64,000 nucleotides of DNA from Acidobacteria bacterium RIFCSPLOWO2_02_FULL_65_29 (GCA_001767435.1 MEKT01000147.1:25281-89280), one strand, 5' to 3'; shown: positions 47,055-63,164, numbered from the stretch's first letter. Numbers and translations: made by a program. Notes: generated from the sequence alone by a model not told the origin.

Positions 47055-47190
47055 CCCAACCTTCTCCCTCCGGGGGTCCCTGCCCCCCGGCGCCGTAATG
47101 AACAAAGGACCTAAAAAAGCGGCATCAGATTATATAGTCGATAGTCTAGTCGGGCGTCGACTTCCCTCCCTGAGTCCTGAATGAAGGACT

Positions 47191-48520: not shown

Positions 48521-48533
48521 ATTCGTGCCGGCG

Positions 48534-49199
48534 ATGATTTCTCAAGACGACCGCGATGGGCTCGACATGCACCCCAGCCAGGTTCAACCGATGGACGGAC
48601 CGACCTCAATCCGCAAAGTCAAGAAAACGGCGAAGCTTCGCGGCGTGTGGATTTCGTTCATCGGCCGGATCGTCGCGCAGATCCTCGGCGCCGTCGCCAG
48701 CATCGTGCTCGGTGTGATCGTGCTGCACGAGTACCAGAGGACCGCGCAGCCCGTCGCGGCCAAAGCGCGGATCGTGCGCGCCGTTCACGACACGGCCGCC
48801 GGCGGCAGTTCTATCGCCGTGTTGCCGCTTGCTGATTTTTCGGCCGACGACCGCGACAGCTCCCTGGCGGACGCGATCACGGAGGCGGTCATCACCGATC
48901 TCGCGCAGGCTGAGGGTCTCCGAGTGATCTCACGCACATCGACCATGCCCTACAAAGCCACGCAGAAAACCGTGCCCGAGATCGGCCGTGAGCTGGATGT
49001 CGATCTGATCCTCGAGGGCTCGATTGTGCAATCCGGCGGACGCGTGCGCGTGACGGCCCAGCTCATCGATGCCGCCACCGACGAGCACGTCTGGGCGCGA
49101 AGCTACGAGCGCACGCTCGACAACGTGCTGGCCATGCAGGCCGACATCGCCAAGGCGATCAGCCGAGACGTCAGCGTCGCGGGCGCCGCGGCGCGATAG
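48534..49199 (+). CDS. Single-pass membrane protein with TolB-N-terminal-like periplasmic domain
   Basis: Chosen start is MISQDDRDG…. A TM helix (VWISFIGRIVAQILGAVASIVLGVIVL) is followed by …SIAVLPLADFSADDRDSSLADAITEAVITDLAQAEGLRVISRTS…RVRVTAQLIDAATDEHVWARSYER…. The ATGs at 48567 and 48591 are alternative starts. Confidence 0.65.
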   Translation: MISQDDRDGLDMHPSQVQPMDGPTSIRKVKKTAKLRGVWISFIGRIVAQILGAVASIVLGVIVLHEYQRTAQPVAAKARIVRAVHDTAAGGSSIAVLPLADFSADDRDSSLADAITEAVITDLAQAEGLRVISRTSTMPYKATQKTVPEIGRELDVDLILEGSIVQSGGRVRVTAQLIDAATDEHVWARSYERTLDNVLAMQADIAKAISRDVSVAGAAAR

Positions 49200-49283
49200 A
49201 TTCTCAGAGTGCCTTGCGGAATCGACCCACGAAACCCACACCACGATGGACACGGAGGACAGGAGGGCCAATCCAGTAGATTC

Positions 49284-50219
49284 TTAGATTCGAGAATCCG
49301 CCCGCAGCGTGAGCACCGGACACCGCGCTTGTCGTACCACCTGATTGGTCGTCGATCCGAAGAGGGCCAGATCGACCTGGCCCCGGCCCCGTACTCCGAT
49401 GACGATGAGGTCGGCGTGCTCCTCGTCGGCCGCTCGAAGGATTTCGACGTGCGACTTTCCGTCAGTGACCCTCAGTGTCGGCATGCTCTTCGCGCGGGCC
49501 TCGTCCGGGATGAGCGAGTCGAGGCGCGCCAGCGCGCTGGCGTACTGATACCGCCGGAAGTCGGCGAGCGCGGCCGCCTGCGCCGGCGGCAGCCCCTCGA
49601 AGGTCGGACGCGGCGGCTCCTGCCATGGCCACTCGAGCGCGTGGACGACGACGAGCGCGGCGCTCGACTGCGCGGCGAGCGAAAACGCCGCCGCCAGGGC
49701 CGCCAGCGAGGACTCCGAAAAATCGACGGCGCAAAGGATCCGCGTGAACGGCAGCCGCGACGCCCCGTGCACGCGGGGAGGCACGGTCAGCACCGGGCAC
49801 GACGCCTTGCGCAGCACCTTCTCGGTGACCGATCCAATCAGCAAGCGCTCGAACCCGCTCGTGCCGTGCGTGCCCATCACGATCAGATCGGCGGGCAGCG
49901 TGGACGCGCGCTCGAGGATTCTGGCGGCCGGCGCTCCGGCATCGACCAGAACGTCCACGCCGATGCCCACGCCGGCCGCCGCGCCGAAGCAGGCGGAGGT
50001 CTGCTCCCGCAGGCGCGGGACGTCGGCATCGGGCCCCTGATCCTCTGGCACCGGCAAATCGTGTATCGGCGCCAGCCGCGGGTACACGTGCAGCGCGGTA
50101 ATGGCGGCGCGGTACCATCTGGACAGCACCAACGCGTGTTCGATCGCGTGACGCGAAGTATCCGAGAAATCGATCGGACAGAGAATGCGCGAGATCACGA
50201 ACTCACGCATGCTCGTCAT
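49284..50219 (-). CDS. Universal stress protein, tandem UspA domains
   Basis: 311 aa. Two USP units, each ending in the G-x2-G-x9-G(S/T) ATP motif region (…VMGTHGTSGFERLLIGSVTEKVLRKASCPVLTV… and …VIGVRGRGQVDLALFGSTTNQVVRQARCPVLTL…). Confidence 0.88.
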   Translation of the reverse strand: MTSMREFVISRILCPIDFSDTSRHAIEHALVLSRWYRAAITALHVYPRLAPIHDLPVPEDQGPDADVPRLREQTSACFGAAAGVGIGVDVLVDAGAPAARILERASTLPADLIVMGTHGTSGFERLLIGSVTEKVLRKASCPVLTVPPRVHGASRLPFTRILCAVDFSESSLAALAAAFSLAAQSSAALVVVHALEWPWQEPPRPTFEGLPPAQAAALADFRRYQYASALARLDSLIPDEARAKSMPTLRVTDGKSHVEILRAADEEHADLIVIGVRGRGQVDLALFGSTTNQVVRQARCPVLTLRADSRI

Positions 50220-50415
50220 GATCGGTCCGGCGGAACACGAGCAGCCGTGAGCCGCGCGACAGTTCCTCCGTCAAGCGGCCGGGATCCGGTCGCTGCACTT
50301 CCTCCCACTCGTCGTGCAACCCCATGATGGCGTTGGCGGCCGCCGCGACTTGGCCGAGGTCTGAACCTGGAAACCGGCGCCGCAGGATGGTTTCGATCTT
50401 CTGTCTGTCCACCAT
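50203..50415 (-). CDS. Small hypothetical protein (70 aa) upstream of the tandem USP
   Basis: Trimmed to MVDRQKIETILRRRFPGSDLGQVAAAANAIMGLHDEWEEV…. Preceded by gggggtggga. Overlaps the USP start by 17 nt. Confidence 0.45.
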   Translation of the reverse strand: MVDRQKIETILRRRFPGSDLGQVAAAANAIMGLHDEWEEVQRPDPGRLTEELSRGSRLLVFRRTDHDEHA

Positions 50416-50449
50416 GCTTCCCACCCCCGTTCCGAACGAAACCGTGACA

Positions 50450-50465
50450 TGCAAACGACCGGCCG
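50450..50465 (-). promoter_or_regulatory. Candidate sigma-54 (-24/-12) promoter for the sORF-USP operon
   Basis: Minus strand reads CGGCCGgtcgtTTGCA with exact GG-N10-GC spacing. About 24-nt leader to ATG 50415. Confidence 0.4.
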
Positions 50466-50509
50466 TGGGGTCCCGGATCGACTGAGATCGACCGGTTGCG
50501 GTGGACTGC

Positions 50510-50525
50510 TGCCGAGTTCCCGGCA
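50510..50525. promoter_or_regulatory. 16-bp dyad TGCCG-N6-CGGCA (candidate regulator-binding site / UAS)
   Basis: TGCCGAGTTCCCGGCA, in the divergent spacer between the sORF-USP operon and the pentaheme cytochrome gene. One mismatch to the copy at 54933. Confidence 0.6.
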
Positions 50526-50553
50526 GGAGATCGCCTTTCAAATTCGAGCTTCG

Positions 50554-50569
50554 TGGTATATCGTTTGGT
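50554..50569 (+). promoter_or_regulatory. Weak sigma-54-like element upstream of the cytochrome gene
   Basis: TGGTATatcgtTTGGT. The -24 half is identical to the 48505 site, but the -12 half has GG instead of GC. Confidence 0.2.
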
Positions 50570-50623
50570 GACGCGATGGACGGCCGCGGCCCGAACGCCG
50601 CGCCGCAGAGGAGACACCGCACG

Positions 50624-51373
50624 ATGAATCGTCGAATAGGCGTGATCCTGTTTTGGGCGGCAACGGCGGTGGCGGCGCCGGCGTTTGCCCAACTCAATCA
50701 GAGCCGGTGCGCGGACTGCCATTACGCGAACCCCAGCTCGCCGCGCCAGGATCACCTCCAGGAATGGGACCGTTCACCGCATTCGCGCAACAACGTCGGG
50801 TGCGAGAAGTGCCACGGGGGCGACCCGGCCCAGTTCGAGCCGTTCCTCGCGCACCGCGGCATCCTGAATTCGTCGAACAAAGCCAGCCCGGTCAATCGTC
50901 GCAATCTTCCCACGACGTGCGGGGCGTGCCACGTCGGACCGTTCGTGGCGTTTCAAGACAGCCGCCACTATCAGCTGCTGCAATCGGGCGACGAGAAGGG
51001 CCCCAGCTGCTCCACCTGCCACGGCGACACCGACGGCCGGCTGCTCTCGCCAAAGGCGCTGGCTTCAGAGTGCAACCAATGCCATGGACCCGGCGAGCAG
51101 GTGCCACGGGCCGAACGCGCGCGCCTGGTGCGCGACCAGTACGATGGCCTCACCGTCGTGCGCGCGCAGATGAAACTCGCGCAGTCGCTCATCAGACGCG
51201 TGTCCGACAAGGGCCGGCGGGCCGAGTACGACGAGGCGCTGAACCAGGCTCAGGTGCCGCTGACGCGCGCGGTGAACGCCGGCCACAAGTTCGTCTACGA
51301 CGAACTGAGGGAATATCTCGGCGTCGCGCAGCAGCGCGTCGAGGCGCTGCTGAACAGACTCGCCAATCGCTGA
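50624..51373 (+). CDS. Pentaheme c-type cytochrome, secreted
   Basis: Trimmed to MNRRIGVILFWAATAVAAPAFA… Five CxxCH motifs: CADCH, CEKCH, CGACH, CSTCH and CNQCH. Confidence 0.85.
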   Translation: MNRRIGVILFWAATAVAAPAFAQLNQSRCADCHYANPSSPRQDHLQEWDRSPHSRNNVGCEKCHGGDPAQFEPFLAHRGILNSSNKASPVNRRNLPTTCGACHVGPFVAFQDSRHYQLLQSGDEKGPSCSTCHGDTDGRLLSPKALASECNQCHGPGEQVPRAERARLVRDQYDGLTVVRAQMKLAQSLIRRVSDKGRRAEYDEALNQAQVPLTRAVNAGHKFVYDELREYLGVAQQRVEALLNRLANR

Positions 51374-51386
51374 CGAAAACCCGGCA
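51371..51386. promoter_or_regulatory. 16-bp dyad, variant copy (TGACGAAAACCCGGCA)
   Basis: Overlaps the cytochrome stop codon. About 114 nt upstream of the predicted start site of the 51467 promoter. A weaker half-conserved copy, TCGCGGAGTTTCGGCA, lies at 51403-51418. Confidence 0.45.
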
Positions 51387-51466
51387 TCGACCCGAGCGCC
51401 CGTCGCGGAGTTTCGGCAGCAAGCGCCTCGGATGCTCAGCCTGGCAGTGGAGCCGAGTCTCACGCC

Positions 51467-51482
51467 TGGCATGCGCCATGCT
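51467..51482 (+). promoter_or_regulatory. Candidate sigma-54 (-24/-12) promoter for the USP-Yip1 operon
   Basis: TGGCATgcgccATGCT. Best -24 match in the window, with exact GG-N10-GC spacing. About 40-nt leader to ATG 51533. Confidence 0.5.
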
Positions 51483-51532
51483 GCAAGAGATGTCGGCCGT
51501 CGATAGCGTTCTCTTTTCGAGAGGGCTGTCTC

Positions 51533-52042
51533 ATGATCACGCTCAAGAACGTCCTCGTGGCGACCGACTTCGGCCGGGCATCGGAGACCGCGCTCGCGTA
51601 CGGCCGACAGTTCGCTCGGGCCTACGGCGCGAAACTCCACGTGCTCCACGTGGTGGAGAACGTGTTCACGGCGACCTTCGGAGTGGAGGGATACGTGACG
51701 AATGTCGCGGCCCTGCAGCGCGAGGTCGAGGAAGCCGCGCGCAAGCAGCTCGACGCCGTGGTCACCGAGGACGATCGGCGCGAGCTCGGCGCCACGGGGG
51801 TGACGCTCACGTCGGCCTCGCCCGCACTCGCGATCGTCTCGTACGCGAAGGACATCAAAGCCGATCTGATGATCGTCGGCACACACGGCCGCGGCGCGAT
51901 GGCGCATCTCATCATGGGCAGCGTCGCCGAGCGGGTCGTGCGGACGGCGCCGTGTCCGGTGCTCACCGTGCGGCACCCGGAGCACGAGTTCGTGCTGCCC
52001 GACGCGCTGCAGGTCGTGGAGCGGTCCGCCCAACAGCCGTAA
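51533..52042 (+). CDS. Universal stress protein (single UspA domain)
   Basis: 169 aa. MITLKNVLVATDFGRASETAL… and …LMIVGTHGRGAMAHLIMGSVAERVVRTAPCPVLTV…. Confidence 0.9.
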   Translation: MITLKNVLVATDFGRASETALAYGRQFARAYGAKLHVLHVVENVFTATFGVEGYVTNVAALQREVEEAARKQLDAVVTEDDRRELGATGVTLTSASPALAIVSYAKDIKADLMIVGTHGRGAMAHLIMGSVAERVVRTAPCPVLTVRHPEHEFVLPDALQVVERSAQQP

Positions 52043-52098
52043 GGACTCGTCCGCGACGAATACTGAGAACCAAGTCCGCTAGACGGAGGTGGCGCGTG

Positions 52099-52629
52099 AT
52101 GGTCTTCGCGTACCGCATCATGGGCGCCGCGATGCTCGACCAGGCGACCTTCGAGGAAATCGAGGGCGACCGAACGGCGACCGCTCAGGCGATGGGCGTC
52201 GTGCTGCTCGCGAGTCTCTCTGCGGGCATCGGGCTGGGCGGACTCGACGCCGGCCATCCCGTCTCGTTCGTGTTTGTGAGCGGTGCCGCCCTGCTCACGT
52301 GGGCCGTGTGGGCCCTCGTGACTTTCCAGGTGGGCGCGCGGCTCCTGCCCGAACCGCAGACCCGCGTCGATGTCGGCGAGCTGCTTCGCACGCTCGGCTT
52401 CTCGGCAGCGCCGGGTCTCCTGCAGGTCTTCGGCGTCGTACCCGGGTTGAGGGGACCGCTGTTCGCGTTCACGGCTGTCTGGATGCTGGCGTCGATGGTT
52501 GTCGCCGTGCGCCAGGCGCTCGACTACTCGACGATCGCCCGAGCATTCGCCGTGTGCGTCATCGGCTGGCTTCTGGCGTTCACAATCGCGGTGATTCTCG
52601 GACTCGTCTACGGCCCAACTCTTTCGTGA
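52099..52629 (+). CDS. Yip1-domain family membrane protein
   Basis: Extracted from the tail of ORF 50653..52629. ATG 52099 is preceded by GGAGGT. 176 aa, MVFAYRIMGAAMLDQATFEEIEGDRTATAQAMGVVLL… with 5 TM helices. Confidence 0.7.
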   Translation: MVFAYRIMGAAMLDQATFEEIEGDRTATAQAMGVVLLASLSAGIGLGGLDAGHPVSFVFVSGAALLTWAVWALVTFQVGARLLPEPQTRVDVGELLRTLGFSAAPGLLQVFGVVPGLRGPLFAFTAVWMLASMVVAVRQALDYSTIARAFAVCVIGWLLAFTIAVILGLVYGPTLS

Positions 52630-52636
52630 ACGGTCC

Positions 52637-52690
52637 CAAATCCTCAAGTCCTCACATCCTCAAATCCTCAAATCCTCAAATCCTCAAATC
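52637..52690 (+). repeat. Tandem octamer array AATCCTCA, about 7 units
   Basis: Reading: caaatcctca agtcctca catcctca aatcctca aatcctca aatcctca aatcc. Lies between convergent genes. Confidence 0.95.
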
Positions 52691-52700
52691 CGCGATCTAC

Positions 52701-53177
52701 CTAGGGCACTTGCATCGACGCGACGTGCTTCACGACGTTGCTGATGCGCACCTTCGCCAGTGTGTCCGAGGGATCGAGACCTCGGAAGATCGGCCCCCAC
52801 ACGGGCATCTCCCTCGTGCCGTGCGCCGGACTGGGCTCGCCTCCGTTGGTCACGAACGCCTCGATGCGCGCGGCCGGAAATGTGCCGGCGCTCTTGCGGG
52901 CGATGAGTGTCAGGTCGGCGGGAGGGACCTTCAGTGCAGCCGCCACCGGCCCGTGGCCCCTGCCGTCGCGGCCGTGGCAGGAGGCGCAGTAGAAATCGAA
53001 CAGATCCCGGCCCGTGATCGAATCGATGACGAGTGGCGGATTCCGCTGGCCTATGGTCTGGCCGGCAGAGCCGATGGCCGAGGCCCCTGTCAAGAATGTC
53101 AAGAATGTCAAGCATGTCAAGACTGTCAAGAATGCCGATGCTGTCAGCAACAGCGCGCCTTGCGCACGCAGGCCCAT
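52701..53177 (-). CDS. Monoheme class I c-type cytochrome, secreted
   Basis: 158 aa. One CASCH heme motif and a distal …REMPVWGP… Met ligand region. The hydrophobic core of the signal peptide (LTVLTCLTFLTFLT) is encoded by a 9-bp tandem repeat. Confidence 0.8.
   Translation of the reverse strand: MGLRAQGALLLTASAFLTVLTCLTFLTFLTGASAIGSAGQTIGQRNPPLVIDSITGRDLFDFYCASCHGRDGRGHGPVAAALKVPPADLTLIARKSAGTFPAARIEAFVTNGGEPSPAHGTREMPVWGPIFRGLDPSDTLAKVRISNVVKHVASMQVP
53089..53133 (-). repeat. In-frame 9-bp tandem repeat x5 (TTCTTGACA on the coding strand)
   Basis: Plus strand reads gtcaagaat gtcaagaat gtcaagcat gtcaagact gtcaagaat. The coding strand carries five TTGACA hexamers at a 9-nt period. Confidence 0.95.
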
Positions 53178-53225
53178 GATGTCTCTCCGTTCTCGTGTTG
53201 CGTCACCAGCTGAGGACCGTCCCTA

Positions 53226-54845
53226 TCAACCCATCTCCGCCGGCATCGCGGGCTCCCTCCTGGGCTCGGGTACCTCGGTCAACGTCGCCTCGGTGAGGAG
53301 GAGAACGCCGGCGACCGAGACGGCATTCTCGAGCGCGATTCGCACGACCTTGGTCGGGTCGATGATTCCGGCCTCGATGAGATCGACGTAGACGCCGCGG
53401 CTGGCGTCGAAGCCGTAGCCGCCGCTGCCGCCCATCATGCGATCGACGACGACGCCGCCGTCGGCGCCAGAGTTGGCGGCGATCTGCCGCGTCGGTATTT
53501 CGAGCGCGCGCCTGAGCATCAACGCACCCGTCCGCTCGTCGCCGGCCGACGCCGACGCCACGCGATCGACCGCCGCGATCGACCGAAGCAGCGCGAGGCC
53601 GCCGCCTGGCACGATGCCCTCGGCCATCGCCGCCCGGGTCGCGCTGATCGCGTCGTCAAACGCCTCGCGCCGGTTCTTCATCTCGGCTTCCGAGGGTGCG
53701 CCCACCCGAATCACGGCGACGCCGCCGGTCAGCTTCGCCAGCCGTTCCTGCAGCTTTTCGCGATCGTAATCGGACGTGGTCGTCTTCATCTGCTCGCGTA
53801 TCTCGTTGGCGCGCCCATCGATCGCCGCCTTGGTGCCGGCGCCGCCGACGATCGTCGTGGAATCCTTGTCGGCGATGACGCGTTTGGCCTGCCCAAGATC
53901 GGGCAGCGTCACGTTCGCCAGCTTGACGCCGATCTCCTCGGCGATCAATCGCCCGCCCGTCAGAATCGCGAGATCGTCCAGCATCGCCCGGCGACGATCG
54001 CCGAAACCGGGCGCCTTGACAGCCACACAGGGGAGCACGCCGCGGACCTTGTTCACCACGAGCGTGGCGAGTGCGTCGCCCTCGATGTCGTCGGCGACAA
54101 TCAGCAGCGCCTTGCCGCTCTTCGCGATTTGCTCGAGGAGAGGCAGCAAGTCCGTCATCGTGCCGATCTTCTTCTCGTAGATGAGGATGACCGGATCGTC
54201 GAGCACCGCCCGCATCTTCTCGGGCTCGGTGATGAAGTAGGGGGACAGGAAACCGCGGTCGATCCGCATGCCCTCGACGACCTCGACGGTCGTCTCGATG
54301 CCCTTGGCCTCCTCGACCGACGTCGTGCCCTCCGCACCGATCCGTTCCATGGCGTCGGCGACGATTTCGCCGATTGCCGTGTCGTTGTGCGCCGACACCG
54401 TGGCCACCTGCACGCGCTGCTTGTGATCGGCAACCGGGCGCGACAGCTCCCGGAGGCCCGCCACCACGGCCGCGAGCGCGCGATCGAGCCCGCGCTTGAG
54501 CTCGATGGCGCTCGCGCCCGCGGCGATGTTGCGCACGCCCTCGCCGAAGATCGACGTGGCGAGCAGCGTGGCGGTGGTCGTGCCGTCTCCGACGTTGTCG
54601 CCCGTGCGCTCGGCCGCCTCGCGAATCACCTGGGCGCCCAGGTTCTCCTCATGGTCGGCGAGCTCGAACTCTTTCGCGATCGTCACGCCGTCGTTGCAGA
54701 CGAGCGGCTTGCCCCACTTCTTCTCGATGAGGACGCATTTCGATTTCGGCCCGAGGGTGACGCGAACCGCGTCGGCCAGCGCGTTGGCGCCCTTCAGGAT
54801 CTTCTCGCGCGCGGCGGATTGAACGAGGAGTTGTTTGTGCGACAT
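53226..54845 (-). CDS. groEL: Chaperonin GroEL (Cpn60), no adjacent groES
   Basis: 539 aa. …[20 protein letters not shown]… and …[11 protein letters not shown]… signatures. The C-terminus lacks a GGM repeat tail. The upstream neighbour is a CBS gene rather than groES. Confidence 0.93.
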
Positions 54846-54857
54846 GATCCGCGCCTG

Positions 54858-54873
54858 TGCAAAGAGCTCGCCG
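54858..54873 (-). promoter_or_regulatory. Candidate sigma-54 (-24/-12) promoter for groEL
   Basis: Minus strand reads CGGCGAgctctTTGCA with exact GG-N10-GC spacing. The -12 C is 14 nt before the groEL ATG, there is no Shine-Dalgarno sequence, and the geometry is near-leaderless. Confidence 0.4.
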
Positions 54874-54932
54874 CCATCGCGTCAGCGCCACAGCGCCACC
54901 GCCGGAATCGCCGCGCCTCGAGCTGGATCCAC

Positions 54933-54948
54933 TGCCGAATTCCCGGCA
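54933..54948. promoter_or_regulatory. 16-bp dyad TGCCG-N6-CGGCA (candidate regulator-binding site / UAS)
   Basis: TGCCGAATTCCCGGCA. Centred about 93 nt upstream of the predicted groEL start site. Confidence 0.6.
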
Positions 54949-55042
54949 CCCGCTGGAGTGACTAAGGCCTTGGCCTTGGATTTCGGCCTCTTTTCGCGGG
55001 TCGCCCCGGGCACGACCCATGCGATAGCGAGGCGCGTGCGAC

Positions 55043-55495
55043 TCACCACGCCCGCTTGCCGGTGCGCTGCTTGCGGTGCGGCACACGATAATGAATGTCC
55101 GCCCGTATGGCCCGTTCCGGACGTCCGACGCCTCCCCCGACCAGTTCGAGCAGGTCCGAAATCGTCACGATACCCACGAGGCGCCGGCCATCGACGACCG
55201 GCAGGCAGCCGATCGTCCGGCCGCGCATGAGGTTGGCAGCCTTGCGAACCGTGGCGTCCGATTCGATCGTCGCGACGCGGGTCGTCATCAACTCGGCGAC
55301 GATGGCGCCGGCGCGAACTCGGGCGCCGCTCCGGCCGCCAGCGTCGCGGTCCGAGAGCACTCCGAGAATCTCCGTCCCGGCGGTGACGATAAGATGATGG
55401 ATGCGCTTGCGCCGCATCAGGTCCCATGCTTGGTCGGCCGGCATGGTGGCCGGCACGGTCTGCACACCCTCGGTCATGACTTCGGCAACTCTCAT
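55043..55495 (-). CDS. CBS-pair domain protein
   Basis: Trimmed to MRVAEVMTEGVQTVPATMPADQAWDLMRRKRIHHLIVT… with GGAGG 5 nt upstream. Second CBS motif …VAELMTTRVATIESDATVRKAANLMRGRTIGCLPVV…. Confidence 0.85.
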   Translation of the reverse strand: MRVAEVMTEGVQTVPATMPADQAWDLMRRKRIHHLIVTAGTEILGVLSDRDAGGRSGARVRAGAIVAELMTTRVATIESDATVRKAANLMRGRTIGCLPVVDGRRLVGIVTISDLLELVGGGVGRPERAIRADIHYRVPHRKQRTGKRAW

Positions 55496-55528
55496 AATGT
55501 CCTCCGGCGCGCGCAAGACCAGGTTTCA

Positions 55529-55544
55529 TACCGGAATCCCGGCG
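55529..55544. promoter_or_regulatory. Degenerate copy of the 16-bp dyad in the CBS/fdhA divergent spacer
   Basis: TACCGGAATCCCGGCG, 12 of 16 identical to the 54933 copy. Confidence 0.25.
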
Positions 55545-55597
55545 CCTTTCGATCGCTGTGCAAGGACGATACCCGCCGGCGGGTGGAAGGCGGCAGC

Positions 55598-58297
55598 ATG
55601 ATCGCCGCGCCCGTCGCCGGCGCCGCGCCCACGCTGTCGGTCGAGGTCAACGGTGCGCCCGACACACTTCCCGCCGGCGCAACGATTCTCGACGCGCTGC
55701 GCGCGGCGGGCGTGCACCTTCCGACCCTCTGCCACGACGAGCGGCTGACGCCGATCGGCGTGTGCCGGCTGTGCCTCGTACGCGTTCAGGGATGGGCGCG
55801 GGCAGTGCCCGCCTGCTCCACGCCGCTTCTCGACGGCATGCGCATCGAGACGAATGCTCGTGACCTGGAGGACGCGAGGCGTACGGCTCTGACGCTCCTC
55901 GCGCGGCGCTATCCGGCCGACGGCGTCGAGCGCGATCCGCACAAGGAGTTTCACCGCGCGATTCTCGAGCACGGCCTCGAACGCGAGTTGCTCCAAGCAT
56001 CTGCCCCGGGCCCGATCGATCGCTCGCACCCCTACATCGCCGTGGACATGTCGCGCTGCATCGACTGCTATCGCTGCGTCCGGATCTGCGACGAGGTGCA
56101 AGGGCAGTTCGTCTGGCACGTCCGCGATCGCGGGCTGGACACGCAAATCGTGCCCGACGGTCCGAGCCTGTTCGAGAGCTCGTGCGTCGGCTGTGGCGCG
56201 TGCGTGGACACGTGTCCGACCGGAGCGCTCGACGACGCCGCTCGGAGCCGCCTGGGCGCGGCGTCGGCCTGGACGAACACGACCTGTCCGTACTGCGGCG
56301 TCGGATGCGAAATGTCAGTCGGCGCGCGGGACGGCCGGATAGTCGCCGTCAAGCCGGTGCTGGATGCACCGGTGAACAAGGGCCATCTCTGCGTGAAAGG
56401 CCGGTACGCGTTCGAGTTCGTTGGCGCCGACGATCGCGTTCTGGATCCGATGATTCGCACCGGCGGCCAGTGGCGGTGCACCTCGTGGGACGAGGCCCTG
56501 ACGTTCGCAGCGGCGCGGCTTGGCGATCTGGTGGCCCGCCACGGACCCGACAGCGTCGGCGTGCTGGGATCGGCGCGCGCGACCAACGAGGAGAACTACC
56601 TCGCGCAGAAGTTCGCGCGCGTCGTGCTGGGCACCAACAACGTCGATTGCTGCGCGCGCGTCTGTCATGCGCCAAGCGCCGCGGCGCTGAAGCACTCGCT
56701 CGGCACAGGCCTCGGCACGAACTCGTTCGACGACATCGAAATCGCCAGGACGATCCTCGTCTGCGGCGCGAACCCGACGGAGAACCATCCGGTCGTCGGC
56801 GCCCGCATCAAGCAGGCGGTCCGGCGGGGCGCGGCGCTGATTGTCGTCGACCCGCGGCGAATCGAGCTGGCGTCCCTGGCAACCTGTCATCTCGCCGTGC
56901 GCCCCGGCACCAACGTCCCGCTCCTGAACGCGATGGCGCACGCGATCCTCGCCAAGGATCTGGTGGACCGGAGGTTCCTCGAAGCCCGCGTCGACGGTGT
57001 CGAGACGTTCGCCCGGAGCGTCGAGGCCTGGACGCCCGAGCGGGCCGCGGTCGTCTGCGGCGTCGACGCCGAACTGATTCGCCGCGCGGCCAGACTCTAC
57101 GCCACGAGGGCGCCCGCCATGAGCATCCACGGCCTGGGGCTCACCGAACACGTCCAGGGCACCGACGGCGTCACGCTGCTCATCAACCTCGCGCTCCTCA
57201 CGGGCAATATCGGCAAACCCGGCACCGGCATCAACCCGCTGCGCGGCCAGAACAACGTGCAGGGCGCGGCGCACATGGGCTGCGAACCGAACACGCTGCC
57301 AGGCGCCGCGTCGCCGAAGGACGGACGCGCCGTGTTCGAGCAGGCGTGGAAGCGCGAGATCCCCTCCACGCACGGACTCCACCTGCTGCACATGATGGAT
57401 GCGGCGCTCGACGGCCGCTTCAACGCGTTGTGGACGATCGGCTACGACGTGCTGCTCACCAACGCGAACGCCTCGGAGACCGTTCGCGCGATGCGCGCGC
57501 TCGATCTGGTCATCGTTCAGGACCTCTTCCTGACCGAGACCGCGCGCGAGGTGGGGTCGGTGTTCTTCCCCGCGTGCTCGTCGCTCGAAAAGGACGGCAC
57601 GTTCATGAATGCCGAACGGCGGATCCAGCGCGTGCGGCAGGTCGTCCGACCGCTCGGGCAATCGAGACCAGACTGGCGGATCATCTGCGACCTGGCGCGC
57701 GCCATGGGCCACGGTGAACTGTTCGATTTCCGCGAGCCGGAAGCGATCTGGAACGAGGTGCGCGCGCTCTGCGAGGGCGCGCGCGGCATGAGCTACGCGC
57801 GTCTCGATCGCGGGGGGCTGCAGTGGCCCTGCCCCTCCGAGGATCACCCCGGCACGAGCATCCTGCACCGAGACAGCTTCGCCGCCGGACCGCGCGCGGT
57901 GCTCCACGGCGTGGCCTACCAGCCGAGCCGGGAATCCACGGGGCCGGAGTACCCCTTCGTGCTCAACACCGGACGCTCGCTTTACCAGTTCAACGCGGGC
58001 ACGATGACCGGACGGACGCCGAACAACGCCCTCCGCCCCTCAGACCTGCTCGACATGTGTCCAGACGACGCGGATCGGCTCGGGCTGAGCGAGGGCGACA
58101 CCGCGCGCGTCATCAGCCGGTATGGCTCCGCGGTGCTGCCGGTCCGGCTGAACGCCGGCGTCCAGCCGGGACAGCTGTTCGCCACGTTTCACACGCCCAG
58201 CATCTTTCTGAACTCCACCACCGGATCCCACCGGGACGGCGCCACGGGCACGCCGGAGTACAAGGTGGCGGCGGTGCGCGTCGAACGGACCGCGTGA
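55598..58297 (+). CDS. fdhA: Formate dehydrogenase alpha subunit, Mo-bisPGD enzyme with NuoG-like N-terminal Fe-S domains (Cys type)
   Basis: Trimmed to MIAAPVAGAAPTLSVEVNG… with GGAAGG upstream. 2Fe-2S (…CHDERLTPIGVCRLCLV…), 4Fe-4S motifs (CIDCYRCVRIC, CVGCGACVDTCP), TTCPYCGVGCEM…KGHLCVKG, and active-site ARVCHAPS (Cys-His, no in-frame TGA). Confidence 0.88.
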   Translation: MIAAPVAGAAPTLSVEVNGAPDTLPAGATILDALRAAGVHLPTLCHDERLTPIGVCRLCLVRVQGWARAVPACSTPLLDGMRIETNARDLEDARRTALTLLARRYPADGVERDPHKEFHRAILEHGLERELLQASAPGPIDRSHPYIAVDMSRCIDCYRCVRICDEVQGQFVWHVRDRGLDTQIVPDGPSLFESSCVGCGACVDTCPTGALDDAARSRLGAASAWTNTTCPYCGVGCEMSVGARDGRIVAVKPVLDAPVNKGHLCVKGRYAFEFVGADDRVLDPMIRTGGQWRCTSWDEALTFAAARLGDLVARHGPDSVGVLGSARATNEENYLAQKFARVVLGTNNVDCCARVCHAPSAAALKHSLGTGLGTNSFDDIEIARTILVCGANPTENHPVVGARIKQAVRRGAALIVVDPRRIELASLATCHLAVRPGTNVPLLNAMAHAILAKDLVDRRFLEARVDGVETFARSVEAWTPERAAVVCGVDAELIRRAARLYATRAPAMSIHGLGLTEHVQGTDGVTLLINLALLTGNIGKPGTGINPLRGQNNVQGAAHMGCEPNTLPGAASPKDGRAVFEQAWKREIPSTHGLHLLHMMDAALDGRFNALWTIGYDVLLTNANASETVRAMRALDLVIVQDLFLTETAREVGSVFFPACSSLEKDGTFMNAERRIQRVRQVVRPLGQSRPDWRIICDLARAMGHGELFDFREPEAIWNEVRALCEGARGMSYARLDRGGLQWPCPSEDHPGTSILHRDSFAAGPRAVLHGVAYQPSRESTGPEYPFVLNTGRSLYQFNAGTMTGRTPNNALRPSDLLDMCPDDADRLGLSEGDTARVISRYGSAVLPVRLNAGVQPGQLFATFHTPSIFLNSTTGSHRDGATGTPEYKVAAVRVERTA

Positions 58298-60048
58298 AAT
58301 TCACCGCGCTCGCGCTCGACTACGACGGCACCATCGCCGTCGACGGCCGGTTCCATCCGGCCGTCCGTCAGGCGATCGGTGACGTGCGGCGGCAGGGCAT
58401 CGCGGTGGTGCTCGTCACGGGCCGCCGTCTGGCCGACCTGCATCAGGTGGCCGGCGATCTGACCTGTTTCGACGTCGTGGTCGGCGAGAACGGCGCCGTG
58501 CTCGAATTTCCGTCGAGCGGCCGGCACGTGACGATCGGGCACCGGCCGCACCCCGGCGTCGTCCGCGAGCTCCAACGGCGAGGCGTCGCGGTCGCAGCCG
58601 GAGAATCGATCATCGAGGCGGAGGCCGCGGCGGCGCCGATTGTCCTCGACGTGATTCGCACGCTCGAGCAGCCGCTCGTCCTTCTGTTCAACAGGAACCG
58701 GTTGATGATCCTGCCGCAGGCCATCGCGAAGTCCAGGGGACTGCGCGAAGCGCTGTTTGCGCTCCGGCTGTCCATTCACAACACCGTCGGCGTGGGTGAC
58801 GCCGAGAACGACCACGACCTGCTCGACGCGTGCGAAGTGGGCGTGGCGGTCGGCTGGGGCAGCCCAGCGCTTCGCGCCGTCGCGGACGAAGTCATCGATG
58901 GCGCCGGCCCCGAGGCCGTGGCCGAGTACATCAGGCGCGTCTCGAGGCAGACGCGGCTGTCGGCGGCGCAAATGGGCAGGCGCCGGCTGCTTGTCGGGCA
59001 CCAGCACAACGGCGACCCGGTGGAGCTGACCGTGCGAGGGAGGACGATTCTCATCGCCGGGGAGCCGGGCACGGGGAAATCGTGGCTCGCGGGACTCCTC
59101 TGCGAACAGTTGATTCTGCAGGGCTACTGCCTCTGCATCATCGATCCCGAGGGCGATTACCGCTCGCTCGAGGAGCTGCCGAGCGTGATCACGCTCGGGG
59201 GCGACGATCCGCCGCCGAGCGCGCGCGAGATTGCGCGCGCGCTGCGTCATCCCGACGTGAGCGTGATCGTGGACCTCTCAAGAGTCTCGCACCGCCAAAA
59301 GTTCCAGTACCTCACCACGCTGCTGCCGCTGCTCGTGAGCCTCAGACGCCGAACCGGCCTGCCCCACAAGATCCTCCTCGACGAGGCCCACTATTTCCTT
59401 GGAGGAGGCGACAGCGCGCAGCTCATCGATCCCGAGCTCGCCGGCTACATTCTCGTGACCTACAGGATCTCGGGACTCGATCCGTCGATCCGGACGACCA
59501 GCGACGCCGTCGTCATGGTGACCCACGAGACCGACCCGCTCGAGGCCGAGACGATTCGGAGCCTCTGCCGGCTCCCGGCGGGCGTGATCGTGCCGACCGA
59601 CGTGTTCCACAGTCTCGCGTTGAACGAGGTGGCGTTGCTGCCGGGGGTCGAAGAATCTCAGGGCCGGGTTCGGCGTTTTCAGCTCGCGCCCCGCCTCACC
59701 GCGCACGTTCGCCACCAATCCAAGTACCTCGACATGCCGGTGACCGAGGACCGGGCGTTCGTCTTCAGCGTTGGTGGACATTCCGGACCCCGCGTGAGGA
59801 CGCTCAAGGCGTTCATCGGGCTGCTCGCCGCTTTGCCCGCCGAAGAGATTGCGGCCCACCTTGGCCGCCACGATTTCTCGCGGTGGATCTTGGAGGTCTT
59901 CCGAGACGGTCCGCTGGCGGCGCACCTGCGGGGCATCGAGGACCGGGCCGACGGAGAGGAAACGCGCGACACCATCGAGGCGATCGCGCAGGCGATCCGG
60001 GCCCGGTACGAAGCCGTTGCCGAACCCGGAGCGCCGCTGCAGGATTGA
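58294..60048 (+). CDS. Fusion protein: HAD-IIB (Cof-type) phosphatase domain + HerA/DUF87-like P-loop ATPase + unassigned C-terminal domain
   Basis: GTG start overlaps the fdhA stop (GTGA). HAD motifs LDYDGT, VLVTGR and GVGDAENDHDLL. ATPase motifs IAGEPGTGKSW (Walker A), IIDPEGDY and ILLDEAHYF (Walker B). C-terminus …LGRHDFSRWILEVFRDGPLAAHL…. Confidence 0.75.
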   Translation: MKFTALALDYDGTIAVDGRFHPAVRQAIGDVRRQGIAVVLVTGRRLADLHQVAGDLTCFDVVVGENGAVLEFPSSGRHVTIGHRPHPGVVRELQRRGVAVAAGESIIEAEAAAAPIVLDVIRTLEQPLVLLFNRNRLMILPQAIAKSRGLREALFALRLSIHNTVGVGDAENDHDLLDACEVGVAVGWGSPALRAVADEVIDGAGPEAVAEYIRRVSRQTRLSAAQMGRRRLLVGHQHNGDPVELTVRGRTILIAGEPGTGKSWLAGLLCEQLILQGYCLCIIDPEGDYRSLEELPSVITLGGDDPPPSAREIARALRHPDVSVIVDLSRVSHRQKFQYLTTLLPLLVSLRRRTGLPHKILLDEAHYFLGGGDSAQLIDPELAGYILVTYRISGLDPSIRTTSDAVVMVTHETDPLEAETIRSLCRLPAGVIVPTDVFHSLALNEVALLPGVEESQGRVRRFQLAPRLTAHVRHQSKYLDMPVTEDRAFVFSVGGHSGPRVRTLKAFIGLLAALPAEEIAAHLGRHDFSRWILEVFRDGPLAAHLRGIEDRADGEETRDTIEAIAQAIRARYEAVAEPGAPLQD

Positions 60049-60071
60049 GAGATGGGGCTAGTGTCCCGTCA

Positions 60072-60752
60072 CTAGGCGCTCTTCGCGGCTGGACCGCTCT
60101 TGGGCGTTCCTTCAGTTCGCCCCGCGCGGGCCAGAAGCTGCCGCACCTCTTCGTCGGTCGTCTGGGCGAATTGCTGATACCAGAGGCCGACCGCCTGAAA
60201 CGGCTCGGGCCTCTGCAAACAGACGACCTCGTCGGCCATGCGGCCGAGCCGGTCGCAGGTGTCTCGAGCGCCCACGGGGACCGCCACGACGATCCGAGAT
60301 GGCTGCAGCCGCCGCAGCGCGATCACCGCCGCCTCCATGGTCGAACCGGTCGCCAGACCGTCATCGATCAGGATGACGAGGTGGCCGCGAACGGGAACGA
60401 GCGGGCGGCCCCCGCGAAAGAGCTGGTCGCGCCGATCCAACTCGAGGCGTTCGCGCACGGCAGTCTGCTGGACGAGCGTGCGCGGGATGCCCAAGTCCCG
60501 AATCAAATCCTCGCTCAGCACCTCGACGCCGCCCTCCGAGATCGCGCCCATCGCCAGCTCCTGGTGCCCCGGCACGCCGAGCTTGCGGACCAGAAACACG
60601 TCGAGCGGGACGCGGAGCTGTTCGGCCACTTCATACGCCACGGGCACGCCGCCGCGCGGCAAGGCGAGCACGACGACGTCGGCGCGCCCCGCGTAGGTCG
60701 CCAGGCGAACGGCCAGCTGGCGCCCGGCGTCGATTCGATCGTTGAAACGCAT
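60072..60752 (-). CDS. Phosphoribosyltransferase-family protein
   Basis: Trimmed to MRFNDRIDAGRQLAVRLATYAGRADVVVLALPRGGVPVAYEVA… PRPP-binding loop VILIDDGLATGSTM. Confidence 0.82.
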   Translation of the reverse strand: MRFNDRIDAGRQLAVRLATYAGRADVVVLALPRGGVPVAYEVAEQLRVPLDVFLVRKLGVPGHQELAMGAISEGGVEVLSEDLIRDLGIPRTLVQQTAVRERLELDRRDQLFRGGRPLVPVRGHLVILIDDGLATGSTMEAAVIALRRLQPSRIVVAVPVGARDTCDRLGRMADEVVCLQRPEPFQAVGLWYQQFAQTTDEEVRQLLARAGRTEGTPKSGPAAKSA

Positions 60753-60754
60753 CG

Positions 60755-61201
60755 TCAATCCGCTCCCGCGCGAGACGCAGCCCTCACAACACGGCGGCCC
60801 GGCCGCGGGTGTGTTTTCACCGCCCCGCGGCGCCGACGTGCGTAGTCCTGCAGTTCCCGCCGCGCCTTGTCGAAGACCTCGCGAAGGACGACGCGCGCAT
60901 CCTTGCGCGTCGCGTCGACCTCCGTGCGCTTGGTCGCTGCCAGCGCCTCGAGGCGCCGCTCGGTCGCGCGCAGCCGGGGCGCGTGGCTGACGACGATGTC
61001 CTCGCCGGGTACGCCCAAGTCGACACGCACCTGAAACCGGTTGCCGTGGAGCCGGTGGCGGTGCGGGATCTCCACGATCACCCGACAGGATATGATGTCG
61101 CGGCAATACGTAGCGAGCTTGGCCACGCGCCGGCGAATGTCGGCGTCGATCCACTCGGTAGACTTCAGATTGTGAAACTTGATCTCCAGGGGTGCCTGCA
61201 T
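60755..61201 (-). CDS. HPF/RaiA (S30AE)-like ribosome-associated protein
   Basis: Trimmed to MQAPLEIKFHNLKSTEWIDADIRRRVAKLATYCRDIISCRVIVEIPHRHRLHGNRFQVRVDLGVPGEDIVV…, the beta-alpha-beta-beta-beta-alpha YfiA-like pattern. Its stop lies 2 nt from the PRTase start. Confidence 0.65.
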   Translation of the reverse strand: MQAPLEIKFHNLKSTEWIDADIRRRVAKLATYCRDIISCRVIVEIPHRHRLHGNRFQVRVDLGVPGEDIVVSHAPRLRATERRLEALAATKRTEVDATRKDARVVLREVFDKARRELQDYARRRRGAVKTHPRPGRRVVRAASRAGAD

Positions 61202-61226
61202 CGATCGAACCTCGACGGTAGACAGA

Positions 61227-61242
61227 AGCACAAACGACGCCA
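61227..61242 (-). promoter_or_regulatory. Candidate sigma-54 (-24/-12) promoter for the HPF-PRTase operon
   Basis: Minus strand reads TGGCGTcgtttGTGCT with exact GG-N10-GC spacing. About 15-nt leader containing GAGG. Confidence 0.4.
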
Positions 61243-61282
61243 TCTCGAGCTCGGAACAGTGACCGGATCTGCGAGCAGGCTC

Positions 61283-61298
61283 TGCCGAATACCCGGCA
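61283..61298. promoter_or_regulatory. 16-bp dyad TGCCG-N6-CGGCA (candidate regulator-binding site / UAS)
   Basis: TGCCGAATACCCGGCA, in the divergent HPF / acs spacer. Centred about 75 nt upstream of the predicted HPF start site. Confidence 0.6.
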
Positions 61299-61379
61299 AA
61301 GTCTCCGGCGACTCGGCGGTCGATGTCACAATGGCCCACCGCGGACTGAGCAAGACCTTTGCAGGCAAGAGGATGGCTC

Positions 61380-63164
61380 ATGGCGTCTGACGCTTCTCTT
61401 CCAGCCTCGGGTACGCGCTGGCCCGCCATCACCAAACCGCGGAGCGATTGGAACGTCGTCCCCAACCTGGTGGACTACGACCGGACGCGCGCCGCGTTCT
61501 CGTGGGAGAACGCCCGCCGCGACCTCGATGGCCTGCCCGGCGGCCGTGGGTTGAATATCGCCCACGAGGCGGTGGACCGCCACGCCGCTGGCCGCCTCGC
61601 CACGCGCGTCGCCATCAGATGGCTGTCGAAAGACGGCCAGCGCAGGGAGCTCACCTACGCCGACCTGCGCGAGGGGACCAGCCGCTTCGCCAACGTGCTC
61701 CAGGCGCTCGGCATCGGCAACGGCGACATCGTGGCGGCGCTTGCCGGGCGCATTCCGGAGCTCTACATCGCGGCGCTCGGCACGATCAAGAACGGCAGCG
61801 TGTTCACGCCTCTCTTCTCCGCATTCGGCCCCGAGCCGATTCAGACTCGGATCAACATCGCCAAGGCCAGAGTGCTCGTGACCACCCCTGCCTTGTACCA
61901 GAAGAAAGTCGAAGCCCTGCGCGGATCCTTGCCAAGTCTCGAACACGTGTTGCTGGTCGGCGCTGGCGCATCGTTCGCTGGGACGCGCGACCTCGCCGCG
62001 CTCATGGCCGGAGCCGACAGCCAGTTCGTCATCCCGCCCACCGATCCGAACGACGTCGCGCTTCTGCACTTCACCAGCGGCACGACTGGCAAGCCCAAGG
62101 GGGCGGTCCACGTTCACGAGGCCGTCGTCGCGCACCACGCGACCGCCCGTTTCGCGCTCGATTTTCATGACGACGACATCTTCTGGTGCACGGCCGATCC
62201 GGGCTGGATCACCGGCACGTCCTACGGCATTATCGCGCCGCTGACGCACGGCCTGACGAGCATTGTCGATGAAGCGGACTTCGACGCCGAACGGTGGTAC
62301 ACGATTCTCGAGAAAGAGCGCGTCACGGTCTGGTACACCGCGCCGACGGCGATCCGCATGCTGATCAGGACGGGAGCGGCGGCGGCGCGAGCGCGTGATT
62401 TCCGATCGTTGCGCTTTCTGTCGAGCGTCGGCGAGCCCCTCAATCCCGAGGCCGTGCGCTGGGGCGTCGAGGCGTTTGGTCGTCCGTTCCACGACAACTG
62501 GTGGCAGACCGAGACAGGCGGCATCATGATCGCCAACTTCGCGGCCTCCGAGGTCAGGCCCGGTTCGATGGGGCGGCCGCTTCCGGGTATCGACGCCGCC
62601 ATCGTGCGGCGCGTCGACAATCGGATCGAGGTCATCGACGAGCCTGGCATCCAGGGCGAGCTCGCGCTCAAGCCGGGCTGGCCGTCGATGTTCCGCGCGT
62701 ATCTGTCCGACGACGTACGCTATCGCCGGTGCTTCGCGGACGGGTACTACCTGACCGGCGATCTGGCGCGGCGCGATTCGGACGGCTATTACTGGTTCGT
62801 CGGACGCGCCGACGACGTCATCAAGTCGTCTGGCCACCTCATCGGACCGTTCGAGGTCGAGAGCGTCCTTGTCGAACATCCGGCCGTGGCCGAAGCCGGC
62901 GTCATCGGCAAGCCGGATCCGATTGCGCTCGAAATCGTCAAGGCCTTCGTCGCGCTCAAGCCCGGGTTCGAACCGAGCGAGACCCTGCGCCGCGAGCTGC
63001 TGGCCTTCACGCGCGTCAGGCTGGGTGCAGCGGTCGCGCCGAAAGAACTGGACTTCCGTCCGAGCATTCCGAAAAACCGCGCGGGCAAGATCATGCGCCG
63101 GTTGCTCAAGGCGCGCGAGCTCGGGCTGCCCGAAGGCGACACGTCCACGCTGGAGGCGTCATGA
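61380..63164 (+). CDS. AMP-forming acyl-CoA synthetase, acetate--CoA ligase (AcsA-type)
   Basis: Trimmed to [11 protein letters not shown]… AMP-binding motifs [13 protein letters not shown], …WWQTETGG… and …[40 protein letters not shown]…. Confidence 0.85.

Follow-up and report, generated by a model that had tools for sequence, protein, structure and literature searches.

A stress-gene island with shared dyads and sigma-54-type promoters as a candidate two-tier, low-oxygen regulon of Vicinamibacteria

We analysed a 64-kb stretch of DNA (the window; contig C147:25281-89280 of a 5.5-Mb assembly in 239 contigs) from Acidobacteria bacterium RIFCSPLOWO2_02_FULL_65_29, in which a block of genes at 49.2-61.5 kb (the island) encodes universal stress proteins (USPs), a ribosome hibernation factor (HPF), a GroEL paralog, cytochromes, a CBS-pair protein, a formate dehydrogenase, a phosphoribosyltransferase-family protein (PRTase) and a fusion of a HAD phosphatase with a HerA-like ATPase (HAD-ATPase). 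The island is probably the largest local block of a two-tier regulon of Vicinamibacteria that depends on sigma-54 and is triggered by low oxygen. About a dozen survival genes would stand under one shared switch read by sigma-54, the signal and the regulators being assigned from sequence. The encoded functions, namely nucleotide sensing by USP and CBS proteins, ribosome hibernation, chaperonin activity and extracytoplasmic and formate-linked electron transfer, fit survival of oxygen or energy limitation. A first-pass annotation of the window had proposed an independently wired, DosR-like quiescence or hypoxia regulon sharing a dyad and -24/-12 elements, and the results below support that reading.

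The dyad in the window reads TGCCGA[A/G]T[T/A]CCCGGCA, a 16-bp form of the wider consensus TGCCGG-N4-CCGGCA. Three copies lie within the island and are the sole matches with at most one mismatch in the whole genome, where about 0.4 would be expected by our base-composition estimate. All three are intergenic, share one orientation, stand 82-95 nt from the first start codon and precede a GG-N10-GC promoter on the minus strand by 40-59 nt. Dyad 1 (TGCCGGGAACTCGGCA on the gene strand; 50510-50525, minus strand) is 44 nt upstream of the promoter 16-mer of the operon formed by a short open reading frame (sORF) and the tandem USP gene, dyad 2 (TGCCGGGAATTCGGCA; 54933-54948, minus strand) is 59 nt upstream of that of the groEL-cytochrome c operon, and dyad 3 (TGCCGGGTATTCGGCA; 61283-61298, minus strand) is 40 nt upstream of that of the hpf-PRTase operon. 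From this arrangement we propose the dyads as candidate upstream activating sequences (UAS) of a bacterial enhancer-binding protein (bEBP). Two further elements are less regular. A weak dyad-like element (TGACGAAAACCCGGCA; 51371-51386, plus strand) 5' of the USP1 promoter has a perfect right half and two mismatches in the left half, which leaves its membership of the motif uncertain, and a two-mismatch dyad (TACCGGAATCCCGGCG; 55529-55544), read directly in the divergent spacer between the CBS gene and fdhA, lies 53 nt upstream of the fdhA ATG.

Five sites with GG and GC at the 10-nt spacing were correctly placed 5' of island genes. The promoter of the sORF-USP operon (CGGCCGGTCGTTTGCA; 50450-50465, minus strand) has the GG-N10-GC form with TTGCA at -12 and ends 34 nt before the sORF ATG, and that of the groEL-cytochrome c operon (CGGCGAGCTCTTTGCA; 54858-54873, minus strand) lies 12 nt before the groEL ATG; pattern searches gave those of USP1 and the adjoining membrane protein (TGGCATGCGCCATGCT; 51467-51482, plus strand), of the CBS gene (GGGTATCGTCCTTGCA; 55559-55574, minus strand) and of hpf-PRTase (TGGCGTCGTTTGTGCT; 61227-61242, minus strand). 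The pentahaem cytochrome gene has only a degenerate -24/-12 element upstream (TGGTATATCGTTTGGT, 50554-50569). A search with a loose sigma-54 consensus (at most two mismatches) returned 16 matches across the window against 21 expected, that is, no enrichment; because this search was uninformative, we relied on the stricter pattern GG-N8-TTGC[AT] combined with position analysis, which had nine matches on both strands of the window, three of them island promoters at the expected place. The shared dyad and -24/-12 elements announced by the first-pass annotation are thus present, as three dyads unique in the genome and five promoters, and they are unlike those of DosR, as it had also stated: the promoters are of the -24/-12 type, the 16-bp dyad is a different one, and no sigma-70-type promoter was detected in the island.

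The groEL promoter bears on how that gene would be translated. No Shine-Dalgarno sequence was found between promoter and ATG (54846-54873, minus strand), which together with the 12-nt distance suggests that the groEL mRNA is leaderless or nearly so. The same groEL lineage in relatives is co-transcribed behind the CBS gene and has a normal AGGAGG.

Conservation of the gene set was examined around the HAD-ATPase, chosen as anchor for being specific and central, in 80 ortholog loci with 10-kb flanks in which island proteins were compared by tblastn. The HAD-ATPase is the most widely conserved member, and the island families cluster near it in shuffled order in both Vicinamibacteria and Terriglobia: USPs in about 50 of the 80 loci, HPF and PRTase in about 24 each, the GroEL paralog (69-80% identical and far closer than the in-genome paralogs) in about 16, FdhA and CBS in about 9 each, cytochromes in about 8 and the 177-aa membrane protein in about 6. 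Since a single-copy gene would fall within 10 kb of the anchor by chance in about 0.4% of genomes, this is a conserved gene set and not a chance cluster. The neighbourhood conservation that the first-pass annotation had called for is therefore found, in shuffled form.

The wiring is shared as well. An initial dyad search of relatives gave about 100 matches against 13 for a reversed-pattern control, many of them coding sequence (such as 'CRELGIKT' of accC), so anchored loci and permuted-palindrome controls were substituted. In 33 Vicinamibacteria loci we found 24 dyads (TGCCGG-N4-CCGGCA, at most one mismatch), 8 of which were followed by a strong -24/-12 promoter within 130 nt, compared with a mean of 0.58 and a maximum of 5 for 59 composition-matched permuted palindromes; the pairing of dyad and promoter is about 14-fold above controls. 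The genes 3' of such pairs in Vicinamibacteria relatives include the orthologs of HAD-ATPase, HPF, USP1 and the 177-aa membrane protein, together with Hsp20-, BON-, DUF302-, DUF4342- and DHOD-like genes (read from sequence, with no Pfam check), and in other families of the order PFOR, CcmE and a homolog of the sORF product lie 3' of dyads. The consensus of 22 aligned dyad sites is TGCCGGnAATCCGGCAg, and the distance from dyad to promoter 16-mer in these sites was mostly 30-81 nt, with outliers of 7 and 12 nt. Among the loci compared, the dyad and sigma-54 wiring is conserved only in Vicinamibacteria. Further members in the source genome lie at C228:6120 (a small membrane protein, an sORF paralog and FBP aldolase/phosphatase), in a C177 spacer and at C224:8863, and weaker dyads are found at C228:8315 and on C164, near feoB.

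In loci L189 (genome G046) and L194 (G048), perfect dyads (TGCCGGATTCCCGGCA and TGCCGGGAATCCGGCA) are followed by weaker sigma-54-like promoters and then by the gene for pyruvate:ferredoxin oxidoreductase (PFOR), an enzyme of anaerobic metabolism. A repeat of about 200 bp with inverted ends (CAGCCCGTGGTGAAAGTCTG ... CAGACTTTCACCACGGGCTG), which looks like a miniature inverted-repeat transposable element, occurs in intergenic positions beside regulon genes at C177:14220-14450 and C228:~5650-5900 (L172, L174).

The source genome contains rpoN (contig C237, recognised by the RpoN box ARRTIAKYR) and about 28 bEBP genes (PF00158), none of which was found by the PF00158 search on the island's own contig C147. 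In relatives, by comparison, both bEBP genes and FixL-like kinases occur inside the gene set: bEBP genes stand in 27 of the 80 anchored loci, and those of Vicinamibacteria form two orthologous groups. Each has one candidate in the source genome with a GAFTGA motif, and both candidates are linked to oxygen sensing, which answers the suggestion of the first-pass annotation that the gene set might co-occur with a specific bEBP. A PAS-bEBP in the Terriglobia loci was considered as an ortholog of the GAF-bEBP of the source genome (C205), which it probably is not, the best match being confined to the AAA+ domain.

The first group comprises an NtrC-type response-regulator bEBP (C177:12057-13436, domain architecture confirmed) that in L034, L039 and L076 adjoins a kinase with PAS domain(s) matching the haem domains of FixL proteins. 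The corresponding histidine kinase of the source genome (C177:8702-9826) has HisKA and HATPase_c transmitter domains and is co-transcribed with a tandem USP. Its PAS domain matches Bradyrhizobium japonicum FixL with an E-value of 1.7e-38, the region of the proximal histidine is conserved (PDREEHDHYIGRY aligns with PDRSRHDSYISRY) and IIGIGR is kept, from which we infer a putative haem-PAS oxygen sensor. No LuxR-type FixJ partner was found beside it; the regulators encoded nearby are of the NtrC bEBP type or single receiver domains. In L034 (JBGPHH010000047.1) RtcA-, PRPP-synthetase-like, inositol-monophosphatase-like and P-type cation ATPase genes (assigned from N-terminal sequences, with no Pfam check) lie near the HAD-ATPase, the P-type ATPase gene directly 3' of the kinase-regulator pair. 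A second FixL-like haem-PAS domain (56% identical) occurs elsewhere in the source genome in a 1165-aa CheR-PAS-kinase (C66:36098-40288) beside a NarL-type response regulator, and this may be a separate FixLJ-like oxygen system.

The second group is represented by a 346-aa bEBP (bEBP2; C224:9192-10232) that consists of an AAA+ domain with GAFTGA, a cysteine motif and a Fis-type helix-turn-helix; the domain search detected no N-terminal or sensor domain. Its gene is co-transcribed with that of a 74-aa NifU-domain protein. The motif C-x7-C-x-C-x6-C, in the context ENACERIAQTC(T/S)CGTxxxGC, is invariant in the three orthologs compared (3/3), and its spacing differs from that of the NifA motif. Across 61 genomes, dyad counts per genome were higher where a bEBP2 ortholog is present (2.46 versus 1.16, Mann-Whitney P = 0.004, kinship ignored), while no association with the FixL-like kinase was seen (P = 0.40). 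In three kinase-less genomes, G012, G037 and G044, dyads also stand no more than 10 kb from the bEBP2 gene.

The region upstream of nifU-bEBP2 was compared in about 20 genomes. A sigma-54 promoter, TGGCAC-N5-GTTGCC, is conserved there; 2-12 nt ahead of it stands a dyad-like element, and about 60-110 nt upstream a distinct pair of sites, GCGGnTTTTCCGC and GGGGAATAATCCCC. In most genomes of the family the nifU-bEBP2 operon comes directly after an NtrC-type bEBP gene, and in 8 of the genomes compared the end of the group-1 gene immediately adjoins these sites. In the source genome, sites of the GGGGAATAATCCCC type occur 5' of strong sigma-54 promoters at just three places, on C224, C177 and C120. 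In the last of these (C120:~45480-45581, L171), a GCGAAATAGTTCCC site and, 61 nt further on, a perfect sigma-54 promoter, TGGCACGGCCGTTGCT, lie 5' of genes for two Pfam-less proteins and a CarD-like gene; the NtrC-type regulator may have a third target here. Of about 14 genomes with both the kinase and the bEBP2 gene, 6 have the two within 10 kb of each other and on one strand.

Taken together, these features suggest the following scheme. Sigma-54 RNA polymerase would be held at the island promoters as a closed complex, giving a tight off state, and a start of transcription would require an enhancer-binding ATPase, bound at the dyad, to remodel that complex; the sensor-less bEBP2 of C224 is the most likely dyad binder. 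Falling oxygen would activate the FixL-like kinase, and the phosphorylated NtrC-type regulator would then turn on the nifU-bEBP2 operon, itself predicted to be driven by sigma-54, through its own sites GCGGnTTTTCCGC and GGGGAATAATCCCC. bEBP2 could in turn activate the genes for the ATP-binding USPs, the hibernation factor, a GroES-independent chaperonin paralog and cytochromes, and in relatives also those for the HAD-ATPase and Hsp20-like, BON-like and PFOR proteins, with the expected outcome that translation is slowed and proteins and redox balance are kept under oxygen or energy limitation. bEBP2 may be active only when its cysteines hold an intact metal or Fe-S centre, which would provide a second, direct check of oxygen or redox state. 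A stronger version of this last step can be put forward only tentatively, as one we would sooner bet against: that bEBP2 and the NifU-like protein form a self-contained Fe-S or metal-thiolate sensor of oxygen or redox state, in which the NifU-like protein loads a cluster onto C-x7-C-x-C-x6-C and only the cluster-bound activator fires, so that control by the FixL-like kinase would make an AND-gated two-tier switch. Were it so, a NifA-like sensing principle would operate wholly outside nitrogen fixation, and the switch would commit soil Acidobacteriota, which are abundant and for the most part uncultured, to a dormancy built on ribosome hibernation, a GroES-independent chaperonin made from leaderless mRNA, ATP-sensing USPs and the HAD-ATPase.

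Several observations weigh against a two-tier, low-oxygen regulon. In the source genome no -24/-12 promoter can be recognised for the fdhA-HAD-ATPase operon, and the dyad-like element beside fdhA (TACCGGAATCCCGGCG) is on the wrong side of the CBS promoter, at about +5 to +20 and before the start of the CBS gene. Of the -24 elements, three (CGGCCG, CGGCGA and GGGTAT) are weak, and each island promoter has one dyad only, whereas bEBPs usually bind two or more sites. The link between bEBP2 and the dyads is correlative, ignores phylogeny and draws on noisy counts in which several matches are coding (for example in accC). Some genomes have dyads and no FixL-like kinase, which means that the first tier does not apply everywhere. 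In the Terriglobia loci the gene set is shared, but dyads are not enriched and strong -24/-12 promoters are few, so that the wiring cannot be extended to that class. Finally, USPs, HPF, chaperonins and Hsp20 are stress proteins of a general kind, and the signal could therefore be energy, redox, starvation or desiccation and not O2 itself.

That last point leads to the best of the alternatives, in which the same sigma-54/bEBP regulon answers to general growth arrest (energy or carbon starvation, stationary phase, desiccation or osmotic stress, heat) and not to oxygen; we regard it as a serious contender of clearly lower probability. The generic stress proteins among the members (USPs, HPF and GroEL, with Hsp20- and BON/OsmY-like proteins in relatives), the lack of a recognisable sensor domain in bEBP2 and the dyads of kinase-less genomes all speak for it. 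They have to be set against the physical linkage of a FixL-type haem-PAS kinase, a NifU-like protein and a Cys-motif bEBP to the regulon, and against the cytochromes and FdhA, with PFOR and CcmE in other families, that are counted under the dyad. Acidobacterial USPs, moreover, respond to nanomolar oxygen: in Acidobacterium capsulatum at 0.1 µM O2 a USP was up 56-fold and a histidine kinase 84-fold (PMC11636273).

A somewhat less probable alternative keeps the oxygen signal and removes one tier. The NtrC-type regulator (C177:12057-13436), phosphorylated by the FixL-like kinase, would bind the dyad itself, and bEBP2 would be one more target or belong to another regulon. L034, L039, L055 and L076 do have orthologs of regulator and kinase at no more than 10 kb from the HAD-ATPase, the source genome has dyad-like elements and a strong -24/-12 promoter beside the kinase gene, and dyad-like elements precede the nifU-bEBP2 promoter. 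Yet the dyad counts track bEBP2 and not the kinase, dyads with sigma-54 promoters behind them are also present in kinase-less families, and it is a different conserved palindrome, GGGGAATAATCCCC, that stands at enhancer distance from nifU-bEBP2, directly after the NtrC-type gene. We regard a single tier as an unlikely arrangement.

More doubtful still is that the dyad is the operator of some factor other than a bEBP, such as a repressor, and that the -24/-12-like sequences arose by chance in GC-rich DNA. The unenriched loose search and the single dyad per promoter would agree with this improbable reading, but the spacing and orientation of dyad and promoter are fixed in the window, their pairing exceeds controls in relatives, TTGCA -12 elements lie at the right distance from start codons, and rpoN is present. 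Least probable of all, and disfavoured here, is that the island is no functional unit but a set of genes clustered by chance, or else a mobile or anti-phage defence island: PADLOC did match the HAD-ATPase (mad8, HerA) and the PRTase (ShosT), but weakly, at the P-loop level and far below family level, while base composition equals that of the rest of the window, no mobility genes occur among the annotated island ORFs, no Rfam family matched in 47000-64000, and the gene set is conserved around the anchor in 80 loci and shares cis-elements.

Among known systems, NmpRSTU of Myxococcus xanthus comes nearest in mechanism: there, sigma-54 together with a haem kinase and an NtrC-like regulator governs CBS and USP genes in hypoxia (PMC11841059). 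Like the island system as proposed, it belongs to a soil host and runs from a haem-sensor kinase to an NtrC-like bEBP; this binds a dyad 5' of sigma-54 promoters, with a CBS-domain protein and an ATP-type USP among the targets (PMC11841059). It differs in its sensor, a globin-coupled kinase with a phosphorelay (NmpU, NmpS) in place of the FixL-type PAS kinase proposed here, and in its dyad, GCGCA-N5-TGCGC in pairs 14-15 bp apart, as opposed to the single TGCCGG-N4-CCGGCA of the island. It has no second-tier Cys-motif bEBP or NifU-like protein, and its regulon centres on cbb3 oxidase, HemN and hemerythrin and not HPF, GroEL, PRTase or HAD-ATPase.

In gene content, the DosR/DevR regulon of Mycobacterium tuberculosis and the lxa locus of Burkholderia cenocepacia are closest. 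The DosR regulator is of the NarL/LuxR type and acts at 20-bp Dev boxes and sigma-70-type promoters, in contrast to the -24/-12 elements and 16-bp dyad of the island; its sensors are GAF-haem kinases, and the phylum of the host differs. Rv2626c, a CBS-pair protein, would be the DosR parallel to the island CBS protein, and the P-type ATPase and RtcA genes near the gene set in L034 recall DosR blocks with CtpF and RtcB. Both sets have multiple USPs, an HPF-like protein (Rv0079/RafH) and a PRTase-domain protein (Rv0571c), and the formate-hydrogenlyase locus next to Rv0081 compares with island fdhA (PMC5309233). The resemblance to DosR noted in the first-pass annotation thus holds for the functional mix and the domain families and goes no closer than that level. 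Direct orthology was looked for through PDB matches and was not supported: Hrp1 is not among the 17 best matches of the CBS protein, and Rv2623 (2jax, 3cis) matches the tandem USP only at an E-value of 5e-10.

The lxa locus is, like the island, a compact locus of an aerobe, with six USPs, DosR-like functions and one shared motif; it is induced by low oxygen and needed for anoxic survival (PMC3721108). Its motif, TGA-N6-TCA, is of the Fnr/Anr type and under control of the CRP/FNR family, unlike the sigma-54/bEBP control predicted for the island, and its gene content differs in including polyhydroxyalkanoate synthesis, a class II ribonucleotide reductase and phosphofructokinase (PMC3721108). The idea of an independently wired DosR-like regulon therefore already has precedents, in lxa (PMC3721108) and in NmpRSTU (PMC11841059).

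The closest system in logic is rhizobial FixLJ-NifA, and we compare it here from its general features. This is a two-tier low-oxygen control in which FixL, a haem-PAS kinase, switches on the gene of NifA, a sigma-54 activator that is itself oxygen-sensitive through conserved cysteines. The first-tier candidate of the island system is of the NtrC type and not of the FixJ/LuxR type; bEBP2 differs from NifA in having no GAF domain, another cysteine spacing, a UAS other than TGT-N10-ACA and a NifU-like partner; and the targets are stress and dormancy genes in place of nif/fix genes. From all four systems the island is set apart by its motif, its sensor type, its second-tier Cys-motif bEBP with a NifU-like protein and its target set.

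Vicinamibacteria are among the most abundant soil bacteria, very few are cultured, and how they endure fluctuating oxygen and long periods without growth is little understood. The present analysis yields a testable regulon: it supplies the motif and the promoters, about 15 target families, and three regulators named as candidates. It also suggests that hypoxia and dormancy programmes with DosR-like content arose repeatedly on NarL-type, FNR-type and sigma-54/bEBP chassis. Components that deserve study in their own right are the phylum-wide HAD-HerA-like ATPase, the Cys-motif bEBP paired with a NifU-like protein, and an orphan GroEL lineage older than the split between Vicinamibacteria and Terriglobia.

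The gene map of the island was drawn from codon-position G+C (the window has about 67% G+C) and from Pfam and NCBIfam searches, and the best relatives of the HAD-ATPase place the host in Vicinamibacteria/Vicinamibacterales, phylum Acidobacteriota. Ten of the eleven gene labels given in the first-pass annotation were borne out by family searches or sequence. The eleventh, 'Yip1', had been given to a 177-aa polytopic membrane protein (52096-52629, plus strand) for which no Pfam match at E ≤ 0.1 and no NCBIfam match at E ≤ 0.001 was found; its orthologs are 53-60% identical, and one has a dyad and sigma-54 promoter 5'. Translation of the sORF (50203-50415, minus strand) gives 70 aa, and it overlaps the start of the tandem USP gene by 17 nt, to which it is translationally coupled. 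A conserved small protein is a better description of it than the leader of the first-pass annotation: contig C228 encodes a paralog, 78% identical over 40 aa, and homologs occur in the relatives L019 and L192, both also 3' of a dyad.

The tandem-domain USP (49284-50219, minus strand) matches PF00582 with 207 bits over two stretches, and the single-domain USP1 (51533-52042, plus strand), identified by Pfam, is of the ATP-binding type; the motif G-2x-G-9x-GS is present in all three USP domains. Divergent from the sORF-USP operon lies the gene of a secreted pentahaem c7-like cytochrome with five CxxCH motifs and a signal peptide (50624-51373, plus strand). The gene of a monohaem cytochrome c (Pfam; 52701-53177, minus strand) follows groEL after 48 nt, and the core of its signal peptide (53089-53133, minus strand) reads LTVLTCLTFLTFLT. 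The GroEL paralog (Pfam; 53226-54845, minus strand) scores 721.7 bits against the TIGR02348 equivalog cut-off of 582.1, and neither a groES partner nor a GGM tail was found for it, so that it is a true GroEL-family paralog in a non-canonical setting. The two other, housekeeping groEL copies in the genome each have groES upstream and are 54-55% identical to the island copy, which is 69-80% identical to the GroELs of the same gene set in other genomes.

The CBS-pair protein (55043-55495, minus strand) matches PF00571 in two stretches. The formate dehydrogenase alpha subunit FdhA (55598-58297, plus strand; TIGR01591, 728 bits against a cut-off of 666.25) carries a NuoG-like 2Fe-2S and 4Fe-4S module at its N-terminus, and no adjacent partner-subunit genes were found. 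The HAD-IIB phosphatase and HerA/DUF87-like P-loop ATPase fusion (58294-60048, plus strand; Pfam/NCBIfam) is translationally coupled to fdhA, its GTG start overlapping the fdhA stop (GTGA). The HPF/S30AE protein of the HPF/RaiA type (60755-61201, minus strand) scores 39.9 bits against the PF02482 cut-off of 23.7 and matches the PDB entry 9t0z, an HPF, at 3e-17; it is a divergent second copy, the canonical hpf lying just 3' of rpoN on contig C237. Two nucleotides past the hpf stop begins the gene of the PRTase (60072-60752, minus strand), a TT1426-type protein with an E-value of 1e-38 to TT1426 of Thermus thermophilus.

Outside the island, a FlgO/TolB_N-like membrane-anchored protein (plausible start 48567) has a strong -24/-12 match (TGGTATCGCCTTTGCT; 48505-48520, plus strand) 47 nt upstream; as no dyad lies upstream of it, this promoter probably belongs to the regulon of another bEBP. 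Among loci L031-L110, the HAD-HerA-like fusion at full length (49-74% identity over 570+ residues) is also found in metagenome-assembled genomes labelled Betaproteobacteria, Deltaproteobacteria, Verrucomicrobiia, Eisenbacteria, Eremiobacteraceae and Binatus, which makes it a widespread, uncharacterised protein with stress genes as neighbours.

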